DNA from: a virus
Taxonomy: Duplodnaviria > Caudoviricetes
Length of the DNA stretch: 62,763 nt
IMG/VR virus record: IMGVR_UViG_3300044641_003586
Coordinates: 1 to 62,763 of that record
Strand: one strand, 5' to 3'
Part shown: in pieces, positions 17,085-62,763 of the stretch
Position numbering within the stretch: the first letter of the stretch is position 1
Layout: each line of letters begins with the position of its first letter
Program-made: the position numbers and the translations under genes
The notes under the pieces: model-generated
Told to the model about the DNA's origin: nothing
What the model saw: only the letters and a program-made list of their open reading frames with translations
The model's database searches: none

Positions 17085-17086
17085 AA

Positions 17087-18049
17087 TTATCGAGTTTGTG
17101 GTGTTTCGCCTGCTGAGAACATCCAATCCATCGCCATTTTAGGACGGATTGCGCCTCGGTTTTGTTTGAGTCCTTGGTTAAGGATTTCGTAGCATTTCTG
17201 CCAGAATCCCTGAAGAAGCTGAAGTTCTGTTGCGCCACCTGAATCCTCAAGCTGGATGGCTCGCATTCCGAACTTGAGTGCGCCAATATTATCAGGCCAA
17301 ACAAGATCAGATTCCTGCATCAAACGAACAAATCGACGTTTGCAAAGACAGCGAAGAACAGGTTTGTTATCATCGCGTGGAACAATGGTTCCAGTTTTGT
17401 AGCGACGATAAACTGGATTGGTTTCGCTTGGCTCATAAACTGACATCACAGTTGGAGTGCCAGATACGACGATAGAAAGCGTCACATTGCCAGCAGTCAT
17501 TGGCTTGACCACCTGCGTTACAAACATTTGCACCGATGCAGTGACGATTGGATTGGTCAATGTAAGGGCAATGCCCTCAACGCCATCTTGATCGAAAATT
17601 GGATCGCCATTGCTGTCATGGCCGTAAAGACGAACCACCAATCCATCGTCAATCGCAGAGGCAATCGTCAATCTTGGGAAACCAATTTGCGTCTGAACCT
17701 CCTGCATACAGACATCGCCTTGGTCAATAATCGTGCGAAGATCGCGGCTGGTTTCGTCCAAAAAACCGGGTCCGCTTGTCATGTATTCATTCATCCGTGC
17801 ATACGGAGAAGTAGGCCAATTCACCCGTGTAACACCTACAATGGATTCCAAACGCCTTGGAAGGGTAATGTATCCACTGGTGCTGTCATAATCCACAGCC
17901 TCATACATATTCTTCCACTGACCGCTATTAATGATCCTTTCCACAACTTGATTTAGCGTGGGAAGGAAAAGTTCGGAATTAGGGTTGCCAGGGTAAATCG
18001 TATTACCGATCAATGCCCTAACATCCGCGACTGTGAGGCCTGTTGCCAT
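17087..18049 (-). CDS. putative head-tail adaptor / tail tubular protein
   Basis: N-terminal T.ADVRALI...LNQVVERI helices and YITLPRRLESI, typical of podoviral adaptors. Confidence 0.55.
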   Translation of the reverse strand: MATGLTVADVRALIGNTIYPGNPNSELFLPTLNQVVERIINSGQWKNMYEAVDYDSTSGYITLPRRLESIVGVTRVNWPTSPYARMNEYMTSGPGFLDETSRDLRTIIDQGDVCMQEVQTQIGFPRLTIASAIDDGLVVRLYGHDSNGDPIFDQDGVEGIALTLTNPIVTASVQMFVTQVVKPMTAGNVTLSIVVSGTPTVMSVYEPSETNPVYRRYKTGTIVPRDDNKPVLRCLCKRRFVRLMQESDLVWPDNIGALKFGMRAIQLEDSGGATELQLLQGFWQKCYEILNQGLKQNRGAIRPKMAMDWMFSAGETPQTR

Positions 18050-18125
18050 TTGGCGTTGAGTGTATTCCATTCATGGATAGGGGCAAGGGAGATTTTCTAA
18101 TGGTTCTTGAATCTATGTATAAGAA

Positions 18126-19952
18126 ATGATACCCATGGGTAGAATGAAAAAGAAACCTACCGGACAACCAAAGTTTGTTCAGTTGACCAAGACGATCAAC
18201 ACCTATGGCATTGAGCTGAAAAACATGCCCCCAAATCAGCTAGAAGTTGAGCTGATGTTTATGAAATGTCCTACGGGGAGCACGCTCAACTATGGGAATG
18301 TTCCTAATCCCAAAGGGCATCCAAATTGGATTCATTTCATCAATGCTGTGAATCTGATTTGGAATTATCCTGGCACACGCACGCCTTTCATGTGGCATCC
18401 TTGGGCGGTCAAAATGGTCAAAGCAGCTTTTGAGAACAAGCGTTTGGCTGTCACTTCTGGAGGTTCAGGCGGGAAAACAGGTGTTTTTGCCGTTTTTGCT
18501 CTTGTTTGGTGGCTGGCTGGTCCAACAAGGAACGTAGTTCTAGTCAATACCACGACCATTAAAGACTCGATGGGACGTATCTGGGGCCAAATTACTCGCT
18601 ATTTCAATGGCATGGTGGCTCGACCTGCTGGCAAATTGGTTGAATCCTCCCATTGCATCAAATCCATCGACCTAAAAACAGGGGCAGTTATGGAGGAATA
18701 CGGCATCCGTTTGTTTGCCGGTGAATCCAGTAAAGCGGCTGAGTCTTCTCGCGCTATTCGAGGACAGAAGCATGGCCCTAATGGTAAAATTATTGTTATT
18801 CTGGACGAGTGCGCCGAGCTTTCTAAAGCCATTGTAAATACCTTCGAGGAAAACATTACTCAGAACCCGAATGTGCAGCTCATAGCCCTAGCGAATGCCA
18901 ATAGCCCATTCGATACCTTTGGTGATCTCTGTGAGCCAAAAGAAGGCGGATGGGACGCTTATAACCCCGATTGGGAGGAATGGGAAGGCAAAGGGGCGCA
19001 TGTCCTACGGATCAACAACGAAACCTCGCCAAACATCCTTGAAGGACGGACCATCTACCCATTCTTGATGACTCGCGAGATGTTGGAAGAAAAGCGAGAA
19101 AAGCTAGGGCAACATACCCGTGCTTACTGGCGTGGTGTTTTAGGGGCGTTCCTGCTGGATGGAGACGACGATAATATCTATTCCCCTGCCGAAATCTTGA
19201 AGGTTCCCAATGACTGTGTTTGGCAAGGCATCCCAACAAAGGTCTGTGGCATTGACCTGTCCTATACTAGCGGTGGCGATAAGACAATTATGACGATTGC
19301 CAGTATCGGTATTTGCACTGATGGGAAAAAGCGTCTCAAATTTGAGAAACACATTGCCCTTAATGATGATGCCTCTAGGCGCGATGTAGATCGAACCACT
19401 CAGTTGATTGACCAGATCAAAGATATTTGCACCAAAGAGGGAATTGACATCAAAAACGTGGCAATCGACGCATCAGCAGGTGGCGGCAAGACCTTTGCGG
19501 ATGCCATGTGGAGCAAGTGGGGCAATACCTTCCTGCGGGTGGACTTTGGTGGGAAAGCATCTGATCGTCCTGTTTCCGCTGCTGATCGTGAGAAATCCAG
19601 TGTGCGCTATGCCAATCGCGTGTCCGAACTTTGGGGAAGCGGCAAAGAACTCATCCGTTGCGACCAACTTCGCAATATCACAAAGGAGATGGCTGCTGAA
19701 ATGACAGTCCGGCAATACAAAGACAACAAAGCTCAGGATGGTGGTTCTCGCATCCGAGTAGAGTCAAAAGTGGATATGAAGCGTAGAACAGGCAAAAGCC
19801 CTGACTACTTTGATAGTGCAGCCGTTCTTATTGAACTATGCCGAGAAAGACATGGACTGTCTAGCATCGACAAGCCTGGCAATGTCCGAGAAGGAGTCCC
19901 AAGTCCATTGAAGAAGAAATTCAACCAGCTTGCGGGACTGTGGGCGGCATAA
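18126..19952 (+). CDS. terL: terminase large subunit
   Basis: Walker A GGSGGKT, Walker B IVILDE, coupling motif LAN; RNase H-like CGIDLS..GGD, AIDAS, GKSPDYFD. Confidence 0.9.
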   Translation: MIPMGRMKKKPTGQPKFVQLTKTINTYGIELKNMPPNQLEVELMFMKCPTGSTLNYGNVPNPKGHPNWIHFINAVNLIWNYPGTRTPFMWHPWAVKMVKAAFENKRLAVTSGGSGGKTGVFAVFALVWWLAGPTRNVVLVNTTTIKDSMGRIWGQITRYFNGMVARPAGKLVESSHCIKSIDLKTGAVMEEYGIRLFAGESSKAAESSRAIRGQKHGPNGKIIVILDECAELSKAIVNTFEENITQNPNVQLIALANANSPFDTFGDLCEPKEGGWDAYNPDWEEWEGKGAHVLRINNETSPNILEGRTIYPFLMTREMLEEKREKLGQHTRAYWRGVLGAFLLDGDDDNIYSPAEILKVPNDCVWQGIPTKVCGIDLSYTSGGDKTIMTIASIGICTDGKKRLKFEKHIALNDDASRRDVDRTTQLIDQIKDICTKEGIDIKNVAIDASAGGGKTFADAMWSKWGNTFLRVDFGGKASDRPVSAADREKSSVRYANRVSELWGSGKELIRCDQLRNITKEMAAEMTVRQYKDNKAQDGGSRIRVESKVDMKRRTGKSPDYFDSAAVLIELCRERHGLSSIDKPGNVREGVPSPLKKKFNQLAGLWAA

Positions 19953-20793
19953 ACGCATTGCCCAAAACTGCTCTAAAAATAGCTGTTTTGACAAGATCTT
20001 CTCCAACTTGAGACACCCAATGCTTTGTCATCTCGACCATCATCGGATGGTTGATGTTGCCGTAGATCTCTAGCCAACCTGTGTAGTAGTTGTGAAGTTT
20101 ATCTTCAAGAGTTAGCGGGAAGGTGCGAATCGGCCAGTTGAAGCGATGGTTCCAACCCATTTTAGGATGGCAAATCACCTTTCCACCATTGCGTCTAACT
20201 TTCTCAGCCATATACCATTCCTCTCCACCAAAACCACGAAAGCCTTGGTTGATTTCTGGAGCGTTGGCTTTGACGAATGAGAAACAACCCATACCTTGTG
20301 CTGGAACCTCAAAAGGTTCGCCTGATTTCATACCTTCTTTGTTATCACCCCAGATGCCGAAATCATGGCCCCGCCACACAGGATTGATCTGCTCGCTGGT
20401 AGCTCTCAAGTTGTCATACAAAAGCGGACCTGTAAGCATGTTCTTGGAATCCATATTTCCAGACCAGTATTCCATCATGGCGGCAATAAACCCCGTTTGA
20501 AGCAGCACATGGCAATCTAGGCCAAGAATGATGTCGCCCTTTGCTAGCTTGAAAACGTCATACTTCACAAAGCTGCTTTTTCGGTCAGTGACATCCACCA
20601 CGCGCATGTTCGGCACATCCTTGGCGAAATGCTTTAACTGCTTGCCGTGTGCGCTATCAGGGTTGTTGTCTAAGACAAGAAACTCAGTGTTATCAGGCAG
20701 GTCTTGGTGCATTCGGATGGACTGGATGGAAAAAAAAACTCCATCAAAATCATCGAAGGTTGCCATTGATATGGTTAGCGGTGTTGCTTGCAT
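19921..20793 (-). CDS. glycosyltransferase, family 2-like
   Basis: LVLDNNPD, LGLDCHV (DxH), GFRGFGGEE, WNHRF. Confidence 0.85.
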   Translation of the reverse strand: MQATPLTISMATFDDFDGVFFSIQSIRMHQDLPDNTEFLVLDNNPDSAHGKQLKHFAKDVPNMRVVDVTDRKSSFVKYDVFKLAKGDIILGLDCHVLLQTGFIAAMMEYWSGNMDSKNMLTGPLLYDNLRATSEQINPVWRGHDFGIWGDNKEGMKSGEPFEVPAQGMGCFSFVKANAPEINQGFRGFGGEEWYMAEKVRRNGGKVICHPKMGWNHRFNWPIRTFPLTLEDKLHNYYTGWLEIYGNINHPMMVEMTKHWVSQVGEDLVKTAIFRAVLGNAFMPPTVPQAG

Positions 20794-21761
20794 AAAAAAT
20801 TTCTAATTATGTCATAATAAACTGCTTCACTTTCATCTCTGAGAAGACGCAAACGATACATTTCTTTTGAAAGAGAACCATCAGCAAGCATTTTGTTTGC
20901 ACTTAAAAGTGCTTGTTGTGGATCGTTAATTTCTGGTATTCCCAATAAATTAGCACAAGTTGATATGCGATAATTTTTGACACTTGATGTGAGAATTGAA
21001 GGAGTTCCAGAAGAATTGGCGGCAATAGCTCCGTGCAAACGAGTTGATACAACTATTTCAGCACTAGAAAACGTGGTTATGAGATCATGGTAACTGCCAA
21101 TCATAAACGGTAAATTATTCTGCATGGCAAATATAGCTTCTGAATAAGCATGGCAAACTAAAGACCAACCATCAAGAACTGCTGATTGTAAAAAATCGCC
21201 ACTTATAGGAACACTGCCATGTGGAGATTTAGCATCTTGAAAAACAAGAATCTTGCCATTCTTTTTGGTATTTTTTTTAGGAAAGCAAAACAACGCAGGA
21301 CATGGTAATGCCACACTTTTTACTCCTAAATCAACAAGCGTTTTGTTTAATTGATGATTTCGACAAACAACAAGACATTGATCTCTTTTCATAAGAGAGA
21401 GAATCAAATCGTTTGGTTTTTCATTTGGATTGCAAGAACCTATACCTAAAAACATGACTGGTGTATCAGGTTGAGTCAACAGATGCTCAATAATTGGTTT
21501 TGTTCTCCAAGAGTCCCATTCTGGAGTTCCGGCAAAAATAATCAAATCCCAAGGCAGTTGAATATTTTTATGACCAATATGCAAAGACACCGGATTGCTT
21601 CTGCTTGCATCTAAATCTGGATTTCTGTTATAGAAAAACCAATTACATTCACCAATAACATTTTGAATCAAGTTTTGAACGCCTTCTCTAATGAAGTCAT
21701 CACCTGGATTCCAACCATTAGTCGTGCTTACCAATATATTGAGTCGTTGCGAACAAGACAT
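20775..21761 (-). CDS. polysaccharide pyruvyltransferase family protein
   Basis: WNPGDDFI, FLGIG, CRN, PCPA, STRLHGAIAA..GTP; start uncertain. Confidence 0.8.
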   Translation of the reverse strand: MSCSQRLNILVSTTNGWNPGDDFIREGVQNLIQNVIGECNWFFYNRNPDLDASRSNPVSLHIGHKNIQLPWDLIIFAGTPEWDSWRTKPIIEHLLTQPDTPVMFLGIGSCNPNEKPNDLILSLMKRDQCLVVCRNHQLNKTLVDLGVKSVALPCPALFCFPKKNTKKNGKILVFQDAKSPHGSVPISGDFLQSAVLDGWSLVCHAYSEAIFAMQNNLPFMIGSYHDLITTFSSAEIVVSTRLHGAIAANSSGTPSILTSSVKNYRISTCANLLGIPEINDPQQALLSANKMLADGSLSKEMYRLRLLRDESEAVYYDIIRNFLCKQHR

Positions 21762-22431
21762 CTTCGACAGTAATTTTTTTAATATCATGTTTATGAATTG
21801 AAATAGTATATCCGCAATGATTTCTCCATGAAATGGGAACTTTGTCCATTAAAACTATATATGGTTTTTTGATACTAGCTGCAAAATGCGATAAACCTGT
21901 ATCCACAGTGATAAATGATTTAGCGTGAAAAATCAAAGTAGCCAATTCATTTGGTGGCAAGACTTTACCAAGCATAGAAGTATCAGCATTTTTAATCTGA
22001 ACTTTGTTCCATTTTCCAACCTGTATTACCGGAGCGTCCAATCTATCAACAAGTGATGCCCAATTATCTTCACTCCAGTGTCTCTCTTTAGTAGATGCTT
22101 CAGCGCAAATAACATAATATGGCTCTTTATGTGAGGTTTGAATCGGGATATTCAAATCTGGTATTAAATCTGATATAGTCAGTTGATTTAATTCAGCTAC
22201 TTTAGTTACAAGATTTGAATTTCCATCGCAGATCAGTTTGTATTCAATATCCGCAGGTTCTGGCTTTGATACAATTTTGATTGTGTAAGGATACCACTTC
22301 AAGAAATCGCCAAAAACAGATTGAACAATAATCTCATCGTTATGGTGCTTTTTACAGATAGCTCTTAACGCTGGTTCTGAGCAAATAAAGTCACCTAAAA
22401 AACAATGCGTTTTTACTAAAACACGACTCAT
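21718..22431 (-). CDS. glycosyltransferase family 9 (heptosyltransferase-like)
   Basis: LGDFIC, KERHWS..NW, FITVDTGLSHFAAS..KP. Confidence 0.85.
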   Translation of the reverse strand: MSRVLVKTHCFLGDFICSEPALRAICKKHHNDEIIVQSVFGDFLKWYPYTIKIVSKPEPADIEYKLICDGNSNLVTKVAELNQLTISDLIPDLNIPIQTSHKEPYYVICAEASTKERHWSEDNWASLVDRLDAPVIQVGKWNKVQIKNADTSMLGKVLPPNELATLIFHAKSFITVDTGLSHFAASIKKPYIVLMDKVPISWRNHCGYTISIHKHDIKKITVEDVLFATTQYIGKHD

Positions 22432-34193: not shown

Positions 34194-35372
34194 TTACGAG
34201 CAGGCCGTGTTGACCGTCCAGTTGGTCGGGCAGCGGCGGAAGCGGAGAACCGCACCGTATTCAGGGATCACTGGCTGAGCACCGTAGGCAAACTTGCCAC
34301 GGAAGAAGCCAATGTTCTCGTCCACGTTGCAGGTGCGATCATACTTGTTGATCCACTGGAAGCGTCCGAGGTAGTCCTGCGGAGCGAACTTCATCTCACC
34401 AGCTTGAAGCTGAGAGTCAGGGATCGCGAATTTGACGACCTGCTTAGTGACGATGTAGCAGTCTTCGTATTCTGCCGTGAAGTAGGCAGGATTGACGTTG
34501 GCTGCATCACCTTTGTTGGTGGCAGGGAGCATGAAGGGAACACGCACCCAAGCACCGCCGACAAGGTTCCAGCGAGCGGCTGCAATGTCGATGGTCATCT
34601 TGAAACCGTTGAGGGTGTCAAAAGAACCAGGAGCATTGTTCAGCATACGCACGCGGTCACTGTCCCAGCGGATGTTCTGGATGGTGACGCCATCGGTAGC
34701 AAGGGTCTGCTGAGCTTCGTCCGAAAGAACGAGTGGCAGAAGCGGCTGGCCCATCTTGTTGACGGAAAGGCCGTTCTGAATGTCAGCGCCGTTGCGGACG
34801 AGGGAGTAGCGGATGTAATCAAGCATTTCGCGCTTCAGCGTGCCGATGGTTCCAGTCGCGAAGGAGCTGGAGTTCACGGTAAGACCGCTGTTGGCGACAT
34901 ACTTGTTAGAGCAGATCGCGGTGAACTGATCGCGGCGTTGATTTTCCCACAGGTAGCGGGAGTAGCCACGCAGGTTGCGAATGAAGGAAGCCGCCTGCTG
35001 CACGATGTTGTAGCTCATACGAGCATCTTCAATGCAGAATGGAGGGCTTTCGACAGCCGCAATCTTCAGTTCCATCGAACGACGAGTCTGGGACGGATAG
35101 ATGGTGGACACCGGAGGTTGGCAAGAGCCACCTTGATCGCCTTCGCCACCGTCATTGAACCCGTAGGTCGTGAACGTCACATCGCTGCCGTAAGGCATCG
35201 CACGCTCATAGGTGATGAAGTTCGGGGTGTCACCCATGCCGTTGGGCCAGCGGGTGCGGGAAACGACAGTATCGTTCTGCCAAGGATTCGTGATCCACTG
35301 CTTCTCAGAAGGATCGTCAACGATGCGGTTAGCTTCCGTTTCGAGGAAGTTGTTAATATCTGTGCAGGCCAT
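34194..35372 (-). CDS. major capsid protein
   Basis: 392 aa, strong codon bias, follows portal and scaffold, has a long leader and a downstream terminator. Confidence 0.8.
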   Translation of the reverse strand: MACTDINNFLETEANRIVDDPSEKQWITNPWQNDTVVSRTRWPNGMGDTPNFITYERAMPYGSDVTFTTYGFNDGGEGDQGGSCQPPVSTIYPSQTRRSMELKIAAVESPPFCIEDARMSYNIVQQAASFIRNLRGYSRYLWENQRRDQFTAICSNKYVANSGLTVNSSSFATGTIGTLKREMLDYIRYSLVRNGADIQNGLSVNKMGQPLLPLVLSDEAQQTLATDGVTIQNIRWDSDRVRMLNNAPGSFDTLNGFKMTIDIAAARWNLVGGAWVRVPFMLPATNKGDAANVNPAYFTAEYEDCYIVTKQVVKFAIPDSQLQAGEMKFAPQDYLGRFQWINKYDRTCNVDENIGFFRGKFAYGAQPVIPEYGAVLRFRRCPTNWTVNTACS

Positions 35373-35666
35373 AGTGGTAGTTAGGTTAGGGGTGTTGCCT
35401 ATTCAGGCGGGTATTTGAGTTGAGTTGAAGAACTTGATTTCCAGACGTTCTCCGGTTGGCGACATGCCAGCGGTGTCCAGATCGTTCCACTCCGAGCCAG
35501 AGTGATTAGTAGCTCATTTACCCTTTTACCTAGCGAGCCTCCAAGGAGCGTGGGTAACGCTTTTTAGCTCAATGCGATTTTTCACGTTTTTCCCGTGAAT
35601 GTCAATAAAAAATTTTACAACTCCTCTCTTGCAATCTTATCCTAAACATCGACATCATTCTATCAC

Positions 35667-35957
35667 ATGATCCCATCTATCTATATCCGCATTGACCAAC
35701 CTGCTGTTGGTTCTCAATTCAAATTTGACGCTCAAGTAGTTGTTGGAAACGACTCCACAGGAGATGTTACTGGTTTTCGCTCTCCTGTTTTTGAAGTTGG
35801 TGATGAGCACGAATCTTTCGTGACCCTAATGCAAAAAGTCACACAAGCCGTGCTTCAATATCGCGATTTCCGCAAAAAGGCAACTGAGCAGGACTTTCAC
35901 CTGCTAAATCAGCAAGGAGAGCCTGCTCAGGAAACGCCCGTTATCGTAGTGCCTTGA
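35667..35957 (+). CDS. hypothetical protein, counter-oriented between scaffold and MCP
   Basis: 96-aa ORF filling the intergenic gap. Confidence 0.55.
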   Translation: MIPSIYIRIDQPAVGSQFKFDAQVVVGNDSTGDVTGFRSPVFEVGDEHESFVTLMQKVTQAVLQYRDFRKKATEQDFHLLNQQGEPAQETPVIVVP

Positions 35958-35960
35958 GCC

Positions 35961-37142
35961 TTACGATTGACTCATGTGGGCATTAAACCGCGCCATGATG
36001 CTGTCAAAGTCATAGCCTTTAGGCATATCATCCGTGGAAGATGATTGTGGAGTCTGTGTGCTACTTGGACGTGGAGTGGCTGCAACACGGCTTTTCACAG
36101 CCTGTTCAAGCTCACTAATCTTGGCATTGCGTTCATCTAGTTGGCGAAGCAAGTGCGGTAGAATTACACTGGCGCGAGCAGCAACAGCAAGGCTGGCTGG
36201 ATCACGTTTGATTTCTGCCTTTTGAATGGCTTCAAGCAACGCTTTGTTATCCTTGATGAATGGGATCTTCTCTTGAATCAACTTGTTTGCAGCTTCGGTA
36301 GCTGCTTGCAGTTGACGTTCTTCATCTTCTTTGGCCTTACGAGTTTTTTCTTGTTCCAAGAATGACAGTTCCTGCTTGGCCTTCTCTGCATTCTCAAACA
36401 TTTCGGCTGATTTGCGAAGAAGTTGTTGAGTCTCGCGAGCCTTGGCAACCAGTTCGCCAGCATCAATGGGCGACCATCCATCAGTCACTTCGCGCAAACG
36501 GCGGCGTTGCTCAACTGGATCATTGATCGCCAGAACAGATTTGAGAGTTTCCGGGTCAACATCATAGCTTTTGGCGAGAATATCGACATCCTGACCGATG
36601 CGTGCAGCAGGCTCAAGAACTTCATCCTGATATGCTTTAGAATGCTGAATGTCATGGATAGCACGAAACTGTTCATGCTCAACCATAGCAGTTTCCATCT
36701 CGGAGATACGCTTCTCGTAAGCAGAGATGTCTTTGCCTTCAAAATCAGCAATCTTGGCCTTCATCTGCTCAATCTCGATGAGCTTTTCCTGAACGGTTTT
36801 ATCTTTCTCAGGCAAGGTTCGTTGAAGACTGTCGCGTTCCTCACGAAGCTGCTTTAGTTCAGCCTTCATTTCCTTCCATGTGTTGATGGCTTCTTGAGTT
36901 GGTTGCGACTTCTTCGGGAAGTCCTCTGGCGGCGAATCGTCGTCCTTAGCAGTTGGTTCCTGCTCTTTTGGAGCTTCTTCAGCAACCTTTTCAGCGGCTT
37001 GTGGTTCTACAACCTTTTCGGCTGGCTCAGGCTCAGTTTGGGCCTCACCAGATTGGATAAAGGCTTGCGCCCGTTCCCACATGGCTTCGGCTTCTTTGTC
37101 TGCATCGTATTCTGGTGTTTGTGGCGTGGTGTCGTCTTGCAT
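35961..37142 (-). CDS. capsid scaffolding protein
   Basis: Acidic disordered N-terminus and long coiled coil; lies between portal and MCP. Confidence 0.7.
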   Translation of the reverse strand: MQDDTTPQTPEYDADKEAEAMWERAQAFIQSGEAQTEPEPAEKVVEPQAAEKVAEEAPKEQEPTAKDDDSPPEDFPKKSQPTQEAINTWKEMKAELKQLREERDSLQRTLPEKDKTVQEKLIEIEQMKAKIADFEGKDISAYEKRISEMETAMVEHEQFRAIHDIQHSKAYQDEVLEPAARIGQDVDILAKSYDVDPETLKSVLAINDPVEQRRRLREVTDGWSPIDAGELVAKARETQQLLRKSAEMFENAEKAKQELSFLEQEKTRKAKEDEERQLQAATEAANKLIQEKIPFIKDNKALLEAIQKAEIKRDPASLAVAARASVILPHLLRQLDERNAKISELEQAVKSRVAATPRPSSTQTPQSSSTDDMPKGYDFDSIMARFNAHMSQS

Positions 37143-44665: not shown

Positions 44666-45076
44666 TTAGATGATGGCAAGACGCTTCTTGATTTTGTATT
44701 GAGTTTTTTCCGAATTGTCAGCGATAGCTTGTAGCAAGTTTTGAGTTCCATCGGTTGCCTTTGGCATTGCCGCCTTGATGAGCTTGCAAAGATCTTCTTC
44801 TCCTTTGAGAATGACTTTGAAAAACACTTCGCAGTCTTTGGAACCTGAATTGACAGAAGACATCTCAACAGCCTCTTTGTTGATCTGCGAGATATTGATG
44901 ACCTCTTTCTCAAGCCCAATGATGCGTTCGATCACATCGTCATAGTGTCCCTCGTAGGATTTATAGAGTCCACCAAGAAAGTCATGGTCCTGGAAAAAGG
45001 TAAGACCATTGCACTCGTTGTGAGCACGGTGAGCAAGAAATTGGAGGGCGCGTAATTGAAGGGCGATGGATTGCAT
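44666..45076 (-). CDS. ferritin/Dps-like four-helix protein
   Basis: AHRAH...FFQDHDFLGGLY..YEGHYDDVIERIIG...NLLQAIAD...YKI. Confidence 0.75.
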   Translation of the reverse strand: MQSIALQLRALQFLAHRAHNECNGLTFFQDHDFLGGLYKSYEGHYDDVIERIIGLEKEVINISQINKEAVEMSSVNSGSKDCEVFFKVILKGEEDLCKLIKAAMPKATDGTQNLLQAIADNSEKTQYKIKKRLAII

Positions 45077-50348: not shown

Positions 50349-51368
50349 ATGAAAACACTAAGCCGCACAGTTGACGAATTGACCCACACGCCAACCAACA
50401 TCCGCACAGCTGCCGCTCGCAGCTTGCGCCGCTATATACTGCCGAGCGGTGACGCCTCGTCGCTGCGCCTCGCGATTTTAAGTCGCCAAGGCGTGAAACT
50501 TAACGGCGGCACGCTCAAATCCGCACGATACTACGCACAACGCAAAAACGACCCATTGACCGAACCCCTTAAAAAGCGACACGACGAGCGAGGATTCCAA
50601 CTGCTTTCCAAGCTTGGAAAAGACCGAGCAGGGGAAATGGTCACTTTCGAGATCGAATGTTTTCTGCCACGCAACAGCGTGCAACCACTGAAGGAATCTT
50701 TGCCGCTAGCCGTGCAAATGGTAAGCGATGGCAGTTTATCGAGCGCAGACAGTCCAAGGACGCGTGAAATGGAAGGGATCGAACTTCGCATTCCGTGCAG
50801 CGTGACCGACTACTCCCGCCTATTCCACGTCTGCCGCCTACTTTCGCTCCACGGCGCTAGGGTAAACAAAACCTGTGGATTGCACGTGCACTTTGACATG
50901 CGTGACCTTTCACCGCTCAAACGCTACGCAGACATTAAAGCCGAGGGTGCAAGGCTCCACTCCGTCATCTCCACAGTCGGCCGCTACCTCGTGCCCCCGT
51001 CAAGGCTCAATAATAGGTACTGCGCCCTGACCCCGCCCTCACTGCGCGACCGTTATCGCGCAGTGAACGCCGAGTCCACAGGCAAACACGGCACGCTGGA
51101 AGTTCGCTTGCACAGCGGGACCGTCGAAGCAGACAAAGCCCGACTTTGGGCGGAGTGGTGCCTTTTCTTCCTGCGCCGCCCTCTCTCCAAGTCGCAGAAA
51201 ACCAGCCTCTCAGCGGTGCATTCTCCTGCCGCTGCTCTCGACTGGATTCTACGCTCCGACCTGCCCCCCACCCTCAAATGGTGGTCAGCCCAACGGCTTG
51301 AAAAGTTTCACCCTTCCGCCGTCTCATTGCCAAGCTCAGGCTCCAACGCCGCAGAAGCGAGCGAATAA
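50349..51368 (+). CDS. amidoligase (COOH-NH2 ligase) family protein
   Basis: TFEIE, SDGSL, GIELR, NKTCGLHVHFD, RYRAVN, GTLEVRLHSGT. Confidence 0.88.
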   Translation: MKTLSRTVDELTHTPTNIRTAAARSLRRYILPSGDASSLRLAILSRQGVKLNGGTLKSARYYAQRKNDPLTEPLKKRHDERGFQLLSKLGKDRAGEMVTFEIECFLPRNSVQPLKESLPLAVQMVSDGSLSSADSPRTREMEGIELRIPCSVTDYSRLFHVCRLLSLHGARVNKTCGLHVHFDMRDLSPLKRYADIKAEGARLHSVISTVGRYLVPPSRLNNRYCALTPPSLRDRYRAVNAESTGKHGTLEVRLHSGTVEADKARLWAEWCLFFLRRPLSKSQKTSLSAVHSPAAALDWILRSDLPPTLKWWSAQRLEKFHPSAVSLPSSGSNAAEASE

Positions 51369-51406
51369 TTCCCCCCCCATAACATAACCACCAAACGTAA
51401 AAACAT

Positions 51407-52246
51407 ATGTGCAAAATTTTTGGAATCACCTCTACCGCTGGACTTCAAATGACAGCCCTTCACGGACTCATCCAGCGATCCCATAAAAGCCTGACCGCAA
51501 CTCAAAAAGACGGCTTCGGGTTCGCGATAGGCTCCGGCGACGGCAACCACTACGTGGAAAAATGGGACAACCCAGCCAATTTCCCCGGTGCGGGACAATG
51601 GCCCAGCATTCGCGCCAACCTCGCAGGACTGCCCGTTGAGGCCGATTGTTGGACCGCTGGCACATTCCCCACCGCCCCCGGCGGTGCATACATCGCACAC
51701 GCTAGGACCGCGACATGCAGCCGAGGCGCGGAGAACGCACACCCGCACAGCTCTCACGGATGGGCAGTAGTCCACAATGGAGTGGTGCAGCCTACCAAAG
51801 GCCGCACCAAGCCTTGTGATTCAATCCATATTCTTGATTCCCTTGTGACGCACAAAGGGGCCTCAAAACTCCATGCAGACGTTGCAGGTTATCTCGCAAT
51901 TCTTGCGATTGACCCCAAAGGCAGACTTTCCGCTCTACGCGACGAACGCGCCCCGCTCGTTGTTGCCTGGGTGCCGAGCTTGTCGGCTTGGGCGTTTGCT
52001 TCATCCGATGCCTTGCTTGCCGAGATTGTCAGCGCGCCGCACGATAAAGCATACACGCTGCAACCATACCGCCACGCAACCCACACTGGCAAAGGTTGGA
52101 CGCACGAGGAGGTCAAAAGATGGGACGCAAGCAAGGCAATCAGCTCCAAAGCATCCAAGGCCTTCGGAGATCGTCCTTTGCTTAACGACGAGTTCCCGGA
52201 ATACTCCGGTAGCAAGTGGCACAGTAACAAAAAATGGAGCTTCTAA
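51407..52246 (+). CDS. class II (Ntn) glutamine amidotransferase
   Basis: MCKIFG (Cys2), DGFG, HARTAT, NAHPH, HNGVV, CDS, FAS. Confidence 0.9.
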   Translation: MCKIFGITSTAGLQMTALHGLIQRSHKSLTATQKDGFGFAIGSGDGNHYVEKWDNPANFPGAGQWPSIRANLAGLPVEADCWTAGTFPTAPGGAYIAHARTATCSRGAENAHPHSSHGWAVVHNGVVQPTKGRTKPCDSIHILDSLVTHKGASKLHADVAGYLAILAIDPKGRLSALRDERAPLVVAWVPSLSAWAFASSDALLAEIVSAPHDKAYTLQPYRHATHTGKGWTHEEVKRWDASKAISSKASKAFGDRPLLNDEFPEYSGSKWHSNKKWSF

Positions 52247-53340: not shown

Positions 53341-54069
53341 ATGACACAAGATATGACCATCGAACAGTTTTGCCGCAAGCACAAAGCTTGCGGAGAAGGC
53401 CAAGAATGGGCTTTAGCCTCCTGCTCCACCATGCAGGAAGTTTGGAACAACGTCAGACCAGAATGGCTCATTTGGGTTGCAACCCGTTTGGGCGTGTTGA
53501 CCGATAAAGAGCTTCGGTTATTTGCGGTATTTGCCGCAAGGCAAGTGCAACACTTGATGACCGATTCGCGCTCAATAGCAGCTATTGATGTTGCAGAACG
53601 GTTTGCGAATGGCGAAGCGAGTGTCGAGGAACTTGAAACAGCATACGCAGCAGCAAGGGCAGTAGCAAGGGCAGCAGCATCGGCAGCAGCATACGCAACA
53701 ACAAGCGCAGCAAGGGCAGCAGCAAGGGTAGCAACATCGGCAGCAAGGGCAGCAACATGGGCATCAGACGCAGCAACATCGGCAGCAAGGACAGCAACAA
53801 ACGCAGCAAACGCAGCAAGGGCAGCAGCATACGCATCAGACGCAGCAGCAGAAGCAGAAGCATACGCAGCAACAGGAGCAGAAGCATACGCAGCAGCATG
53901 GGCAGTAGCAAAGGCAGTAGCAACAGACGTAGCATCATGCGCAGCAAGGACAGCAGCAGACAACGCAAGGGTGGCAGCATACGCAGCAGCATGGGCAACA
54001 AACAACGCAGCCATGAAAGAATCTCAAGCCACATGGCTCCGGGAAAACACCACGCCTAATTTTCTATGA
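53341..54069 (+). CDS. phage protein with Imm5-like helical domain and Ala-rich repeat
   Basis: AC.EG..W...EWLIW...LRLFAVFAARQV.HL.TD.RS..AIDVAERFA.G, then a GCA-rich tract at 53641-54012. Confidence 0.75.
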   Translation: MTQDMTIEQFCRKHKACGEGQEWALASCSTMQEVWNNVRPEWLIWVATRLGVLTDKELRLFAVFAARQVQHLMTDSRSIAAIDVAERFANGEASVEELETAYAAARAVARAAASAAAYATTSAARAAARVATSAARAATWASDAATSAARTATNAANAARAAAYASDAAAEAEAYAATGAEAYAAAWAVAKAVATDVASCAARTAADNARVAAYAAAWATNNAAMKESQATWLRENTTPNFL

Positions 54070-57696: not shown

Positions 57697-58487
57697 TTAT
57701 CCACGACGAAGCCACCTACCGAGCGCATCCCGCTCTCAATTATTCTTCAGCTAAATCACTGCTGAAATCGCCCAAGCACTTCCAAGCCGCGCTCAATCGC
57801 AAGTTTGAGCCTTCGCGGGAGATGATTATTGGCAGCGCGGTCCACAGCATCGTTCTGGAGGGCAAGCAACCTTCCTACATCGTTCGTCCTGCTGATCTCG
57901 ACCTTCGCACCAAGGAGGGTAAAGCATGGCGGGATAAGCACGCTGGCATGGAAATCGTTACGCAGGAAGATCACGACATTGTGCTTAAAGCTGCCGCTGC
58001 TGTGCAAGCTAGTCTTGACGCGCAGTATCTTCTCAAACTTTGTCCGCACCGAGAGATTGGTATTGTCTCCAATTACACCGGAGTGGAAATCAAAGGCAGG
58101 TTGGATGCTCATGGCAAAGACGAAGCTGGAAAGCCGATCATTCTGGACTTCAAGACAACGAGCGATGCTGATCCTGAAACGTGGGGCAAGAAAGCCTTTG
58201 GCCTTCGCTACCCCATGCAGACAGCATGGTATGAATCTCTACTAGCTCTTGAACTTGGCCTTGAAGAACCACCTGCTTATTTCTGGCTTGTGGTTGAGAC
58301 GCAAGACCCATTCGATGTTGTGATTTATCAGCCACCCGAAGAAGCTCTGGAGATTGGCCGCGCTCAAATGAAGCATTGCATCGAAAGCTATAAAACGTGC
58401 CTTGCCACAGGTAAATGGCCGGGATACACAAAAGGAATCATTCAGCTTGAAGTTCCTGTATGGGAACGCAAACGCTGGATCAAGTAA
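57693..58487 (+). CDS. RecE/exonuclease VIII-like PD-(D/E)XK nuclease
   Basis: S.AK.LL.SP; GSAVH; KGRLD; DFKTT; Y.MQ.AWY. Confidence 0.88.
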   Translation: MIIHDEATYRAHPALNYSSAKSLLKSPKHFQAALNRKFEPSREMIIGSAVHSIVLEGKQPSYIVRPADLDLRTKEGKAWRDKHAGMEIVTQEDHDIVLKAAAAVQASLDAQYLLKLCPHREIGIVSNYTGVEIKGRLDAHGKDEAGKPIILDFKTTSDADPETWGKKAFGLRYPMQTAWYESLLALELGLEEPPAYFWLVVETQDPFDVVIYQPPEEALEIGRAQMKHCIESYKTCLATGKWPGYTKGIIQLEVPVWERKRWIK

Positions 58488-58512
58488 GACAAACACCAAA
58501 GACAAACAAAAT

Positions 58513-59571
58513 ATGAATGAAAATATCACATTAGTTATTCCCAACGGGGATATGTTGCCTCAATCCATGCTGTCTAATATCCGCGAAGGATTCCAGTCAG
58601 CATTTGAGCAAGCTGAAACATGGAGAGAAAAAGCTCTTGCTATCAAAGTCACTTCATTGGCAGACAAAGAAGCTATGAAACAAGCTCGCGAAATGCGTCT
58701 AGTTTTGAAAAACATTCGTGTCGAAGCCGAGAAAAAACGCAAAGCTCTAAAAGAAGATGCTCTTGTAATGGGGCGAGCCATTGATGGTGTAAACAACCTG
58801 CTTCTTGCGGCCATCCAGCCACTTGAGAGGCACCTTGAAGAACAAGAGAGGTTCGCTGAACGCTTGGCTGAACAAGAGCGCCAACGCCGCTTGAGTGAGC
58901 GCACCGAAGCACTTCAACCATATCTTGAAGCAAATCAGGTGATTCCAGCCTTGGATGCGATGACAGACGACCAGTTTGCCAAGTATCTTGAAGATGCGAA
59001 ATTGCTGCACGCCGCTAAGCTCGAAGCAGCCAAAAAAGCCGAGGCAGAACGCATCGCTCGCGAGCAAGCTGAAGCCGCTGAACGTGAACGTCTCCGCATT
59101 GAGAACGAACGCCTCAGAGCGGAGGCTGCTGAACGAGAAGCCAAAGCAAAAGCAGAGCGCGAAGCCGCTGAAAAGGCTCAACGTGAAGCCGCTGAAAAAG
59201 CTCGCAAAGAACGTGAAGCTATTGAAGCCAAAGCAAAAGCAGAGCGCGAAGCCGCTGAACTTGAGCTTAATCGCATCAAGGCGGAACAAGAGGCCGCAGC
59301 CAAGAAGGAACGTGAAGCACGCGAAAAGTTGGAGCGCGAGTTGGCAGCAAAAAAAGCAGCCGAAGAAGCCAAGGCTAAAGCAGAGGCCGAGGCAATTAAA
59401 AAGGCTGCACAAGCTCCTGATAAAGAAAAGCTGCTACTCATTGCTGAATCGGTTCGGTCCATCAAGATGCCATCTGTTTCGACAGATGAAGCAAAACGGA
59501 TACTTGCTGACATCTCAACCAAACGCGATAACTTTGCAAAGTGGATCGAAAATCAAATCGCCACAATTTAA
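58513..59571 (+). CDS. coiled-coil phage protein (E/A/K/R-rich)
   Basis: AREMRL.LK.IRVE.EKKRK.LKE...GRAID; long charged helix. Confidence 0.75.
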   Translation: MNENITLVIPNGDMLPQSMLSNIREGFQSAFEQAETWREKALAIKVTSLADKEAMKQAREMRLVLKNIRVEAEKKRKALKEDALVMGRAIDGVNNLLLAAIQPLERHLEEQERFAERLAEQERQRRLSERTEALQPYLEANQVIPALDAMTDDQFAKYLEDAKLLHAAKLEAAKKAEAERIAREQAEAAERERLRIENERLRAEAAEREAKAKAEREAAEKAQREAAEKARKEREAIEAKAKAEREAAELELNRIKAEQEAAAKKEREAREKLERELAAKKAAEEAKAKAEAEAIKKAAQAPDKEKLLLIAESVRSIKMPSVSTDEAKRILADISTKRDNFAKWIENQIATI

Positions 59572-59589
59572 CACCAAAGACAAAGACAC

Positions 59590-59904
59590 ATGCCGACACC
59601 CATCATTGCTAAAATCGACGTTAAGAAGATCAACAAGGAATGGCTCTACACGGGAGCCAAGGGAACCTATCTGGATGCCGTGGTTTACGAAAACGATGCT
59701 GTTGACCAGTATGGCAACTCGCATGTTATCAAGCAAAATCCGCCCAAGGAAGCACGCGACCAAGGTGCGAAACCCGTCATCATCGGCAACTGCCGCTGGA
59801 TGCCTCAAAAGAACGGCTCTGGCAACGCCAAGCCTGCTCCACGTCCAGCGAAGCAGGATTCGTTTGCGGATGACACGGGCGACGATACAAGCATCCCATT
59901 TTGA
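59590..59904 (+). CDS. putative single-stranded DNA-binding protein
   Basis: IDV.KI.K..L..G.KG.YL...DQYGN...IIGN; acidic tail DDTSIPF. Confidence 0.75.
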   Translation: MPTPIIAKIDVKKINKEWLYTGAKGTYLDAVVYENDAVDQYGNSHVIKQNPPKEARDQGAKPVIIGNCRWMPQKNGSGNAKPAPRPAKQDSFADDTGDDTSIPF

Positions 59905-60145
59905 CCAACCTTAACACCCCGTTGGCCGAGGGGAATATCGGCCACTTTATAATATGACACTCTCAGAACTCATTCAGCAACTCAACGACATCCACGCAAG
60001 CCTTGGTCGCGCTCCCAACATCGAGGTCAACTTTCGCATCGGTGATCCTCCAGACGATGAGGGCCAGTGCCAAATCTTCGACGTAGAATGGGAGCCACGG
60101 ATTCGTCTCGTCACCATTTGCGGGTAAAATTCAACCACACTCAAT

Positions 60146-60601
60146 ATGAAGTTACACATTGGCATCGACCCTGGGCAGTCAGGAGGAATTGCCATCATCC
60201 CCGACAATAATCCCGCAAAAGCGTGGGCCGTAAAAATGCCTGATACACTGGCTGATTTGTGGGATGAACTGAGCAAGCATGAGCCTAGATGGGCTGGTGT
60301 TGAGGGCTTCGTTGTCCACGCATATCTTGAGCGTGTCCACTCCATGCCGGGACAAGGAGTTGCTTCATCATTCAAGTTCGGCCAAGGCTTCGGCCACCTT
60401 GAGATGGCACTCACCGCTGCACGCATTCCTTACACTTACGTCACTCCTCAGAAGTGGCAGAAGGAGCTTCAATGTCTCACCAAGGGTGACAAGAACATCA
60501 GCAAAGCGCGAGCACAGCAGTTGTTCCCGCATATCAAGGTGACTCACGCGATTGCAGATGCCCTGCTCATCGCTGAATACTGCCGGAGGACCATGAAGTG
60601 A
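60146..60601 (+). CDS. RuvC-like Holliday junction resolvase
   Basis: IGIDPG.SGG, LERV..MPGQGV.S.F.FG, VTPQKW, ADALLIA. Confidence 0.88.
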   Translation: MKLHIGIDPGQSGGIAIIPDNNPAKAWAVKMPDTLADLWDELSKHEPRWAGVEGFVVHAYLERVHSMPGQGVASSFKFGQGFGHLEMALTAARIPYTYVTPQKWQKELQCLTKGDKNISKARAQQLFPHIKVTHAIADALLIAEYCRRTMK

Positions 60602-60846
60602 TGCCCAACGCCAAACAGCCATCCCCCGCACGCAGGCTCCACGAACAGATGGCACGCTTGCTCAACGGGACAAAAGCTCATCACGACGAAGTTACCGAAA
60701 TCCTCATTGCGTTTCTAGCGATTCAAGTTTCCAGCTACAATCCGCTTGAGCGCATAGACGTTTGGGACGCAGTTATTGATACCCTTGACGACATGATCGA
60801 AGAAATCAGCGAAATGAAGGACGAAGAAATCACAATACAAAACTGA
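60598..60846 (+). CDS. hypothetical protein
   Basis: Coupled to the resolvase gene. Confidence 0.55.
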   Translation: MMPNAKQPSPARRLHEQMARLLNGTKAHHDEVTEILIAFLAIQVSSYNPLERIDVWDAVIDTLDDMIEEISEMKDEEITIQN

Positions 60847-60847
60847 T

Positions 60848-61132
60848 ATGACATCCGAATCCAAACTTGAAGCAGTCTGCAAAGAACTTGACGAGGCAAA
60901 TGCAGAACTTAACATAAAATATATTGAGTATGACAGGTTGTTCGATGAGGCAGAGAAAATTAGGCAAGAACGCGACGAGGCTCAAACCAAACTCAAAGAG
61001 GCCACGGAGCTGATGAAAGATGCCATGTGGCAACTTATGACTTTCCTGAAACCCGCAGACACAAAAACTAAAAACATTATCCATGCACTTTATCACGCGA
61101 CCGACACAATGGACAATCATACCGCAAGGTGA
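60848..61132 (+). CDS. hypothetical coiled-coil protein (ERDEA motif)
   Basis: 94-aa ORF in the operon. Confidence 0.55.
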   Translation: MTSESKLEAVCKELDEANAELNIKYIEYDRLFDEAEKIRQERDEAQTKLKEATELMKDAMWQLMTFLKPADTKTKNIIHALYHATDTMDNHTAR

Positions 61133-61310
61133 ACCCATCTTCCACGAATTAGCCACCGTCATCACCATTGAAGATGACGCTGCTGGCGAGCTTTTGAAAA
61201 TCAAACAACACTATGACAATCCAGAGCCATCCACAATCTTCATTGAGGCTGATTATTGGCCTGTCCTTCGCCAAGCGATTGACGATGCGGTTGCTGGAAT
61301 AAAAAACTAA
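61083..61310 (+). CDS. hypothetical protein
   Basis: P.GEPIF.E.AT.I.IEDDAAGE...W..LR.AID, a phage-typical motif; start uncertain. Confidence 0.6.
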   Translation: MHFITRPTQWTIIPQGEPIFHELATVITIEDDAAGELLKIKQHYDNPEPSTIFIEADYWPVLRQAIDDAVAGIKN

Positions 61311-61388
61311 TTCAAAAAACATTCAGAATCCCTATTGACTCTCGTTCGCCTTTGTGCGAGCAAACCTAGTCGCAAGACAACCCACAAT

Positions 61389-62288
61389 ATGAAAACAAAT
61401 AATAACATCATCACCAACACTGAAACCATCCGCCCACTTGTTCGCGGATTCTACGATTTGCAAAAGCTACGCATCCACACGGGCAACCGTTTGTGTGCTC
61501 AGTTCAGGTCCAAGCTAGGGCTGCAATCTTCCGAGAAGGAAGAAGAAGATGAAAAGGCCGAAGAAGTCCTCGACATCATTCGTGCTTCATACAAGAAGCT
61601 CACCGATGGGGTGAAGAAGGAATTGCCAAACATGAAGTCCTTCGTGGGCGACGAGGTGATTTCCGACTACACCGAGCTTTGCCTTGTCTCGCAATACATT
61701 GACCTTGAATCCCGCGAGAGCACACACCTTCGCCGCATCGAGAACATCGTGCAGGAACACCCATTGTGGGATGCGTTCTTCGCAGGCGTCCGTGGTTGCG
61801 GTCCAACAATGGCAGGCGTAATCTTGTGCGATATTGACATTACTCGCGCTACCTATCCAAGCTCTCTCTGGCAATACTCAGGTTTTGGCGTTGAAGCAGA
61901 TGGTCGCGGCACCAGTCGCCGCAAAGAGCACATGCACCGCATCAGCTACTTGGACAAGGAGGGCAAGCCTGCCGAGCGAGATGGCATTCGCTACAATCCT
62001 TGGCTCAAGACCAAGCTGTATGTCCTTGGCACTTGCTTCGTCAAGGCTGGCGGCTTGTATCGCAGTTACTACGACAACTACAAGAACCGCTTGGAGAACA
62101 GCCCGAAATGGGTGGAATCAAGCAAAGGACACCGACACAACGCCGCGATGCGTTACATGATTAAGCGGTTCCTCGTTGATCTTTACAAGGCTTGGAGGCC
62201 GCTTGAGGGTCTGCCAGTTGCGCCAGAATACGGCGAAGGCAAACTTGGCATCATCCACGGCCAAGTGAAGCTGCCAATGGCGGCATAG
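61389..62288 (+). CDS. Nop-domain (IS110/Nop5-related) RNA-binding protein, TasA-like, with no nuclease domain
   Basis: Coiled coil (YDLQKLRI..GNRL), then HPLW..F..VRGCGPTMAG.IL, SSLWQYSG, YNPWLKT, YR.YYD.YK.R, GHRHNAAMRYMIK.FL.DL...WR..EGL. No N-terminal RuvC/DEDD. Array abuts the stop codon. Confidence 0.85.
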   Translation: MKTNNNIITNTETIRPLVRGFYDLQKLRIHTGNRLCAQFRSKLGLQSSEKEEEDEKAEEVLDIIRASYKKLTDGVKKELPNMKSFVGDEVISDYTELCLVSQYIDLESRESTHLRRIENIVQEHPLWDAFFAGVRGCGPTMAGVILCDIDITRATYPSSLWQYSGFGVEADGRGTSRRKEHMHRISYLDKEGKPAERDGIRYNPWLKTKLYVLGTCFVKAGGLYRSYYDNYKNRLENSPKWVESSKGHRHNAAMRYMIKRFLVDLYKAWRPLEGLPVAPEYGEGKLGIIHGQVKLPMAA

Positions 62289-62623
62289 ATTTTGTCATGC
62301 TTGCTTAGTCACCCATCACCGTCGAGCGAGTCAATAACGCTGAGTCACCCATATGTTACGAGCGAGTCAATCAACGTAAATCATCCCTCACAGAGAAGCG
62401 AGTCAGGAGCACGCATACACCCATTAAATCGGAGCGAACCATAAACCATCTAGCCACCCAAGCTGGTTAAGTGAGCCTAGCGCCTAAAGTCACCCAAGAT
62501 ATATGAGCGAGTCATGTCCAGAAAGTCACCCCAGAGGGCACTAGCGAGTCAGTATGCTAAAGCCAACCAAAGCCCATTTGCGAGTCAAGTGACTAGAGAC
62601 ACCCAACATCTTGTAGCGAGTCA
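62289..62623 (+). ncRNA. TIGR-like tandem interspaced guide RNA array (9 units, ~36-nt period)
   Basis: Alternating 9-nt repeats AGCGAGTCA (10 copies, the first degenerate) and AGTCACCCA (9 copies), separated by 18 unique 9(-10)-nt spacers. Confidence 0.88.
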
Positions 62624-62763
62624 ACTATGAGCGATACTTGACACCCTGACCGTCCGGGGTAATGGGCGGGTGTGCCGGGTAGCTGCGTGAGAAACAGTCC
62701 GGTCAAAATCGAGCCTAACTTTAAATGCTGCCCACCTTCCGGCGACCTCCTTGCTCAGGATTT

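Follow-up and report, generated by a model that had tools for sequence, protein, structure and literature searches.

A probable dual-repeat TIGR-TasA locus in an uncultivated freshwater-lake phage: predicted guides, candidate external targets and array turnover

Dual-repeat TIGR-TasA systems are exemplified by FpTIGR-TasA of Flavonifractor plautii and by MbTasA (PMC12045711; 10.64898/2026.09.09.750476). Published dual-repeat arrays alternate repeats of 8-12 nt with spacers of ~9 nt in units of ~36 nt, usually 5-15 per array; they open with an edge repeat that is 5'-truncated, are bracketed by edge repeats, and on processing yield 36-nt tigRNAs that are bound by Tas (PMC12045711). According to the sections of the same work that concern target recognition, the two spacers bind opposite strands at adjoining sites, the cut in each strand falls 5' of the base paired to spacer position 5 so that 8-nt 3' overhangs are produced, and gaps of 1-2 bp as well as edge mismatches are tolerated (PMC12045711). 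In SpTasH, residues Y289 and H296 form the catalytic pair for precursor processing, and a C-terminal Tyr/His pair is present in the dual-repeat clades and missing from the stem-loop clades (PMC13421893; preprint 10.64898/2026.09.09.750476). TasA has been described as an RNA-guided repressor, in reporter assays (10.64898/2026.09.09.750476). Where the primary papers turn to outstanding issues, they name the natural targets of TIGR systems and the gain of guides as two open questions, and they describe guide acquisition as unknown (PMC12045711; 10.64898/2026.09.09.750476). Two further preprints on TIGR systems were also drawn on (10.64898/2026.08.11.744272, 10.64898/2026.07.30.739390).

The window analyzed here is a single virus contig of 62,763 bp (G000), and "this genome" refers below to that one contig. 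Between positions 62298 and 62623 it holds nine units of 36 or 37 nt in the order spacer A, loop repeat AGTCACCCA, spacer B, edge repeat AGCGAGTCA (Table 1); with two alternating 9-nt repeats and 9-nt spacers (one of 10 nt), the array matches the dual-repeat format. The stop codon of tasA occupies 62286-62288 and the array opens on the same strand at 62290, ~1-2 nt downstream, directly behind the tas gene; in dual-repeat TIGR-Tas, arrays adjoin tas upstream and/or downstream. A truncated-edge opening is likewise present in the related loci L001-L003 and L065, and the terminal edge repeat of the window (62615-62623) is full length. No terminator-like site was found after the array, the sole plus-strand site (62270-62284) lying before it. 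Rfam matched no family anywhere in the window. Tandem Repeats Finder reported nothing for the array, as is to be expected with half of each unit variable; the periodicity was recovered by a general repeat search.

Table 1. Coordinates of the tas locus, its array units and the large terminase gene in the 62,763-bp window.
Feature	Position	Strand	Remarks
Large terminase	18126-19952	+	Weak PHROG match, E 2.3e-14
tasA (putative nuclease-free TIGR-associated protein)	61335-62288	+	317-aa ORF from TTG
5'-truncated edge repeat TTTTGTCA, array opener	62290-62297	+	GTCA end retained
Unit 1	62298-62333	+	Spacer A 62298-62306, loop 62307-62315, spacer B 62316-62324, edge 62325-62333; without counterpart in relatives
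Unit 2	62334-62369	+	Without counterpart in relatives
Unit 3	62370-62405	+	Loop variant AATCATCCC; without counterpart in relatives
Unit 4	62406-62441	+	Loop ATACACCCA, edge AGCGAACCA; without counterpart in relatives
Unit 5	62442-62478	+	37 nt; spacer A of 10 nt; edge variant AGTGAGCCT; without counterpart in relatives
Unit 6	62479-62514	+	Without counterpart in relatives
Unit 7	62515-62551	+	37 nt; 10-nt loop (extra base at loop/spacer B border); without counterpart in relatives
Unit 8	62552-62587	+	Counterparts in relatives; kept in 2025 lake contigs
Unit 9 and terminal edge repeat	62588-62623	+	Counterparts in relatives; kept in 2025 lake contigs
Post-array stretch to contig end	62624-62763	+	Two alleles among relatives and lake runs

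In a set of 100 distinct units that related contigs supplied for this repeat family, repeat columns carried 0.9-1.9 bits per position and spacer positions 1-8 were near-random (0.01-0.16 bits). Both repeats had A followed by G or A at their start and C-A at their end in 94-99 of the 100 units. Position 9 of the spacers was biased (0.23 bits for A9 and 0.73 bits for B9): spacer B ended in A in 67, in G in 22 and in C in 1 of the 100 units (A or G in 89), and spacer A ended in A in 49, so that the last spacer base may functionally be part of the following repeat. A model of 17-bp overlapping target sites was not adopted, as the excess of complementarity between A9 and B9 is weak (30 of 108 units vs. 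23.5 +/- 3.3 in shuffles, with 30 or more reached in 167 of 5000 shuffles). Spacer A of unit 9 (62588-62596) holds a 6-nt mirror, i.e., reverse complement, of the start of the loop repeat. Separately, the site predicted from unit 9 resembles the array's own terminal junction in L002 and L004/G002 (minus strand, 2 mismatches plus a 2-bp gap), a resemblance with a chance level of roughly ~0.05.

The start of tasA is likely the ATG at 61389, which would give a protein of 299 aa, in line with homologues of ~285 aa. Searched against PDB sequences with phmmer, TasA matched TIGR-TasR (9mty) over residues 99-296 at E 1.2e-11 and chains of TasH from Salicola phage CGphi29 (21kl, 9w03, 9w04 and others) at E 2.9e-8, the matches being confined to the coiled-coil and Nop parts of TasR and TasH. 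We then used Foldseek to compare an AlphaFold2 model of TasA, built on 46 sequences (pLDDT 85.3, pTM 0.79), with the PDB; the 10 best matches were all TasH/TasR chains (E 3.9e-10 to 3.9e-7, probability 1.00), with ~20% identity to these solved Tas proteins. After them came the IS621 and ISCro4 recombinases (E ~0.02), with Nop56/58, Nop5, and Prp31 lower. Residues 1-121 of the model form three long helices, with no RuvC or HNH fold. Pfam gave no match above cut-off for TasA, and in PHROGs it matched a family labelled "transposase" (phrog_4285, E 6.9e-40). Homologues numbered 1094 at E <= 1e-5, mostly of ~285 aa, and a few of them carry PF02371.

Three C-terminal residues (Y281, K285, and H290, numbered on the 299-aa protein) show no variation among the 46 sequences aligned, and the sequence match aligns the invariant tyrosine with Y289 of SpTasH; by conservation, TasA therefore has the Tyr/His pair of the dual-repeat clades. 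The matches to TasR and TasH, taken together with the lack of a nuclease domain, argue for a dual-repeat TIGR-TasA locus, and sequence and model identify the protein as a nuclease-free TasA of the dual-repeat type.

Because the array opens with a truncated AGCGAGTCA and ends with a full one, AGCGAGTCA is assigned as the edge repeat and AGTCACCCA as the loop repeat. This agrees with the preliminary description of the locus, which had proposed AGTCACCCA as the internal loop and had delimited 62298-62614, which begins with spacer A of unit 1 and ends with spacer B of unit 9; its reading of the nine spacer pairs was also correct, even where unit 5 has a spacer A of 10 nt and unit 7 a loop of 10 nt. 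From these pairs it had predicted nine 18-bp targets (here T1-T9, for units 1-9) by joining spacer A to the reverse complement of spacer B. Deriving the geometry from the published cut rule, we find that an 8-nt 3' overhang arises only when spacer A is placed 5' of the reverse complement of spacer B, the opposite order yielding a 10-nt 5' overhang, and the nine predicted sites are therefore right under the published model. Because position 9 of spacer B is biased, the true guide may be shorter than 9+9, in which case exact 18-bp scans could miss real targets.

The predicted sites would have been built from the wrong halves if the array were read on the opposite strand or if the roles of the two repeats were swapped. 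On the minus strand both repeats do begin with TG, like the UG box D of TasR arrays. We nevertheless regard this as very improbable, given that the array lies on the same strand as tasA and 1 nt behind its stop, that it is opened by a truncated edge and bracketed by edge repeats as published arrays are, and that on the plus strand both repeats end in CA, like box C. An opposite-strand reading amounts to the reverse complement of spacer B followed by spacer A, which was searched in the window and its kin, and swapped roles amount to pairing across the edge, which was searched in the window; neither gave a result. Read on the plus strand, the repeats start with AG or AA and end with CCA or UCA, compared with UG...CCA in TasR arrays, and by analogy we provisionally assign these as a box D-like start and a box C-like end.

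With the array masked, the whole window was searched for self targets on both strands, in both orders, and with gaps of 0-2. Nothing beyond chance was found: the best matches had 3 mismatches, one per order (53395-53413 and 2982-3001), compared with 1.38 and 0.62 matches at 3 mismatches in a mispaired control (72 A/B combinations, scaled to 9 pairs). The impression of the preliminary description, which had noticed no paired match in the window by eye, was thus borne out by exhaustive search. Alternative registers (8-nt and 7-nt cores with a free centre) showed no enrichment in the window, nor did pairing across the edge repeat instead of the loop. Among kin phages, 123 distinct guide pairs from related arrays were compared with 17 sequences (~495 kb, some redundant), giving none at 0-1 mismatches and 6 and 8 matches at 2 mismatches outside arrays, vs. 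7.1 and 7.1 from 608 mispaired pairs. Since self matches are absent, we infer that the targets lie outside the window. The preliminary description had suggested as much; that part of its proposal stands as the natural reading of the self search, although no such target was found in the public and kin sequence scanned.

Imperfect matches could instead let the guides control genes of the phage itself or label its DNA. Such a role would suit a protein that acts as a repressor in reporter assays, and regulation of the viral lifecycle is listed among the possible roles in the part of the preprint that discusses them (10.64898/2026.09.09.750476). A mild excess of self matches over control was seen in the distantly related 90-kb contig G004, whose own 24 guides gave, with both orders summed, 17 matches at 3 mismatches and 2 at 2 mismatches, vs. 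8.1 and 0.5 in the mispaired control. However, many of these G004 matches come from A/T-run spacers, the best self match in the window is at control level with other registers no better, and guides of this kind would be expected to stay conserved, but in phages whose covered tasA stretches are identical the proximal units have been replaced, as described below. We consider self-regulation most unlikely.

Public collections were scanned for exact occurrences of A + N{0,2} + reverse complement of B. The scan of viral_contigs took six of the nine targets (T1-T4, T8, and T9) and returned 5 loci in all, none of them gap-free: two for T1, both in one virus (gap 1, 63% GC), one for T3 (gap 1), two for T8 (gap 2, unrelated flanks), and 0 for each of T2, T4, and T9. 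None of the matched viral contigs carried a second target of the window at <=2 mismatches. The scan of genome_contigs (185,579 species genomes, 596 Gb) took T1 and T2, which gave 58 loci over many phyla and 10 loci in 10 unrelated taxa, respectively. A mispaired control, in which unit 2 supplied spacer A and unit 1 supplied spacer B, gave 102 loci, a comparison that is crude because the control is one mispaired pattern only. No second guide was present in 611 kb around the genome_contigs matches.

These counts bear on two statements of the preliminary description. It had anticipated that finding the targets would reveal both function and host, and the matches are few or scattered over unrelated taxa; with exact 18-bp matches at or below the mispaired control, single matches therefore cannot name a host. 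It had also held that a lack of enrichment over shuffled spacer pairs would refute its proposal, and no enrichment was seen in either the genome scan (58 and 10 vs. 102) or the kin phages. The same difficulty in target finding is stated in the discussion of Xu et al. (10.64898/2026.09.09.750476). Verrucomicrobia, which the preliminary description had named as a group to search, were not supported as hosts: against 201 genomes from the phylum of a Verrucomicrobiota-titled record, T1, the one target used, gave 3 one-mismatch matches vs. 1 for a backwards control. The repeat pattern itself had 5 loci in genome_contigs, none of them an array. Four of the repeat-pattern loci (L037-L039 and L041) have the 18 specified bases at one orthologous, array-free gene site in Stieleria-, Rhodopirellula-, and Phycisphaera-titled records; we rejected this taxon clustering as a signal, as it reflects a chance match multiplied by orthology. 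Chance matches can in this way look taxon-specific, orthologous sites repeating across sister species.

That true targets are no commoner than the mispaired control in 596 Gb, and that viral matches amount to 0-2 loci per target and are never gap-free, would also be in keeping with guides most of which have no perfect natural target, the array diversifying by unit duplication, half-unit recombination, and replacement between co-infecting variants and no more than a few guides, at times none, matching anything; or short-seed binding could make the 18-bp model wrong, and the reported tolerance of edge mismatches and 1-2-bp gaps points in that direction (PMC12045711). The relatives of the locus bear on this alternative from both sides.

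Relatives were gathered in two ways, by protein search and by repeat-pattern search, and the whole contigs G001-G004 were compared; a metagenome scan for more arrays returned 2 loci only, one of them already known. Five contigs encode TasA that is 95-98% identical in protein, with 92-93.5% identity in tasA DNA, and roughly a third of the window has a counterpart in G001 and G002, at ~88% identity. A second clade of relatives has AACGAGTCA as its edge repeat. In the distant relatives G003 and G004, the latter classed as a provirus by IMG/VR, TasA is 45-47% identical and tasA is flanked by arrays on either side, whose repeats, AGCGAGCCA / AGAAACCCA, are related yet distinct (G004, 16965-19000; G003, minus strand, 34744-36300).

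Five distinct arrays from relatives of the window's own lineage (L001, L002, L003, L004 = L005, and L065) end with units matching units 8 and 9, and a third unit in front of those two is common to four of the five. The 18 spacer letters of unit 8 are unchanged in L003, L004 = L005, and L065 and one letter off in L001 and L002; unit 9 is exact in L001, L002, L004 = L005, and L065, and its spacer A differs in L003. Measured against 52 units of relatives, units 8 and 9 of the window lie at distance 0 and units 1-7 differ at 8-11 of 18 spacer positions, like random 18-mers (mode 10). Each unit is thus either conserved or not, rather than conserved by degrees.

For four lake runs, contigs were compared with the window over 60800-62763. 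Two runs from 2020 had tasA and the whole array identical to those of the window. In two runs from 2025 (X10 and X12), the covered tasA stretches were likewise identical (61303-62298 in X10; 60800-61968 and 62079-62298 in X12), and the 244 nt of 62299-62542, from units 1-7 to the last edge, were replaced by 424 other letters, or ~12 units. These contigs rejoin the window at the edge before unit 8, retain units 8-9, and downstream have the alternative flank allele, which departs from the window by 18 differences and 4 gaps, each of them after 62634. One 2025 run also holds a small contig with the window's own units, i.e., the variants co-occur in one run. In a further run (X7), a 113-nt contig (depth 5.7, the full form having 11.4) connects 61331 with 62617 through 11 other letters; it may hint at a variant lacking exactly tasA and the array, evidence that is weak because the shorter side spans 30 letters only and the contig has 3 differences.

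A conserved trailer with a rapidly replaced tas-proximal part fits polarized gain of guides as well as an exchange of alleles through recombination. Some recombination is favored by the altered downstream flank of the 2025 contigs: different proximal units and a different post-array flank beside an identical tasA look like an exchange of alleles. Half-guides moreover reappear beside unrelated partners: two spacer A's are found with TCGAGCGCA and two with CATGCATGA, and two spacer B's with GGATTTAGG and two with GGACCACCT. Some units within arrays are also near-duplicates, so that array reshuffling fits as well as targeted acquisition does. At 2877-2900 of L003, one unit is without spacer A and most of its loop, the edge repeat running straight into CCCA, as if half a unit had been deleted between the AGTCA common to the end of the edge and the start of the loop. 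The exchanged alleles, the recurring half-guides, and the half-unit deletion all favor guides without perfect natural targets. On the other hand, units 1-7 are as far as random 18-mers from the 52 units of relatives and are therefore not reshuffled copies of anything seen, which means that new sequence enters from somewhere. The near absence of bias at spacer positions 1-8 is expected of sampled foreign DNA rather than of decayed repeats, and an intact tasA conserved among 1094 homologues argues for a selected function. On this evidence we judge an array largely devoid of perfect natural targets, or a mistaken 18-bp model, to be unlikely, if a serious contender.

The same observations allow a more specific proposal, which we put forward tentatively and with more doubt than conviction: TIGR arrays in phage populations may gain new two-part guides on the tas-proximal side and keep an old trailer, the arrays of 2020 and 2025 differing beside a letter-identical tasA. 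If true, this would be the first sign of active, polarized guide acquisition in TIGR systems, and it would speak for an arms race with fast-changing external targets rather than for fixed gene regulation. Our search of the TIGR literature found no description of array polarity or turnover.

The phage that carries the locus encodes a helicase, a primase, a large terminase, a CHAP endolysin, exonucleases, a Holliday-junction resolvase, a tail fibre, and a protein of 3673 aa. In 15 lake-water or freshwater metagenome runs from 2020-2025, 0.81-0.99 of the sampled words of 58000-62763 were present, compared with 0.05-0.11 in RNA runs. Attempts to deduce the host failed: no tRNA was found in the window, a tblastn search of 50,697 deposited phage genomes at E 1e-5 returned no match for the large terminase, the best matches of the helicase (~39% identical) were in phages of several Proteobacteria, and the protein atlas was uninformative on the host. 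Judged by the terminase, the phage lineage is far from anything cultured. The 3673-aa protein is encoded by a single ORF (3457-14478, minus strand) whose sole PHROG match is to a family of unknown function (E 8.9e-15, residues 1487-1665); its size is reminiscent of the virion RNA polymerases of N4-like phages. Auxiliary-looking genes lie at 20775-21788 (-), 44666-45076 (-), and 50349-52246 (+), and auxiliary-looking products comprise a polysaccharide pyruvyl transferase, a ferritin/Dps-like protein, and an amidoligase, the last adjoining a weak glutamine amidotransferase match (25.3 bits, below the Pfam cut-off of 27 bits).

Taken as a whole, the locus is probably a dual-repeat TIGR-TasA of an uncultivated freshwater-lake phage in which 36-nt RNAs guide the nuclease-free binding of external DNA. 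The array would be transcribed with or just behind tasA, and TasA, through its conserved Tyr/His pair, would cut the precursor inside the edge repeats to give nine RNAs of ~36 nt. A TasA dimer would hold each RNA, with spacer A on one DNA strand and spacer B on the other at an adjoining 9+9-bp site; having no nuclease domain, the complex would bind and bend the DNA and block transcription or replication rather than cut it. For the 36-nt processing, the tandem pairing with two strands, and the repression by TasA, this scheme follows the published systems by analogy, whereas the anatomy of the array, the protein's family and fold, its lack of a nuclease domain, the missing self and kin targets, and the turnover are results of the present analysis. 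The guides would be aimed at DNA outside the window, either that of the host or, as we infer from the fast turnover of the array, more likely that of rival mobile elements.

With respect to the two questions named in the primary papers, the locus adds a controlled negative on natural targets. On guide gain, its lineage can serve as a natural system for study: it occurs in no fewer than 15 lake or freshwater runs of 2020-2025, and its arrays have an exact trailer in common and a tas-proximal part that is wholly different.

Among known systems, the IS110-family bridge RNA recombinases (IS621, ISCro4) resemble the predicted TasA in being its next-best fold matches, and some of its homologues carry PF02371. 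Unlike them, TasA has no DEDD/RuvC-like catalytic domain, and the locus has a nine-unit array where they have a single bridge RNA, and no element ends; an identity as an IS110 bridge-RNA transposon was ruled out on the grounds of the missing DEDD/RuvC-like domain and the multi-unit array. With CRISPR arrays, which gain units at the leader end and conserve the trailer end, the locus shares its pattern of variation, the units far from the gene being shared exactly and the gene-proximal ones being unique to each variant. Unlike CRISPR repeats, those of the window are 9 nt long and of two kinds, with split guides, and recombination between variants could give the same picture. CRISPR-Cas was ruled out in view of the two 9-nt repeats in place of one repeat of ~25-36 nt and the absence of any cas family, cas1 and cas2 included, in the window (53 proteins with PHROGs, 42 with Pfam). 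We know of no acquisition machinery for TIGR arrays.

Closer likenesses are found in SpTIGR-TasH of Salicola phage CGphi29 (9w03, 9w04, and 21kl) and TaTIGR-TasR (9mty), with which the predicted TasA shares a coiled-coil and Nop architecture. The SpTasH and TaTasR proteins carry HNH or RuvC and cut DNA, whereas the TasA of the window has only helices before its Nop domain, and its Tyr and His are spaced by 9 residues, compared with 7 in SpTasH. The closest correspondence is with dual-repeat TIGR-TasA itself, in that a putative nuclease-free Nop-domain protein with a conserved C-terminal Tyr/His pair lies beside an array of alternating 9-nt repeats and 9-nt spacers with a 36-nt period and a 5'-truncated opening edge, on a phage element; the likeness to FpTasA and MbTasA is one of system description. 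Unlike published dual-repeat TIGR-TasA systems, the window has its own repeats, AGCGAGTCA / AGTCACCCA, with boxes AG...CA, and it departs from typical published arrays in that no terminator is predicted after the array and two of its nine units are 37 nt long. What is new here is the pattern of turnover, in a locus that otherwise appears to be an ordinary dual-repeat TIGR-TasA.
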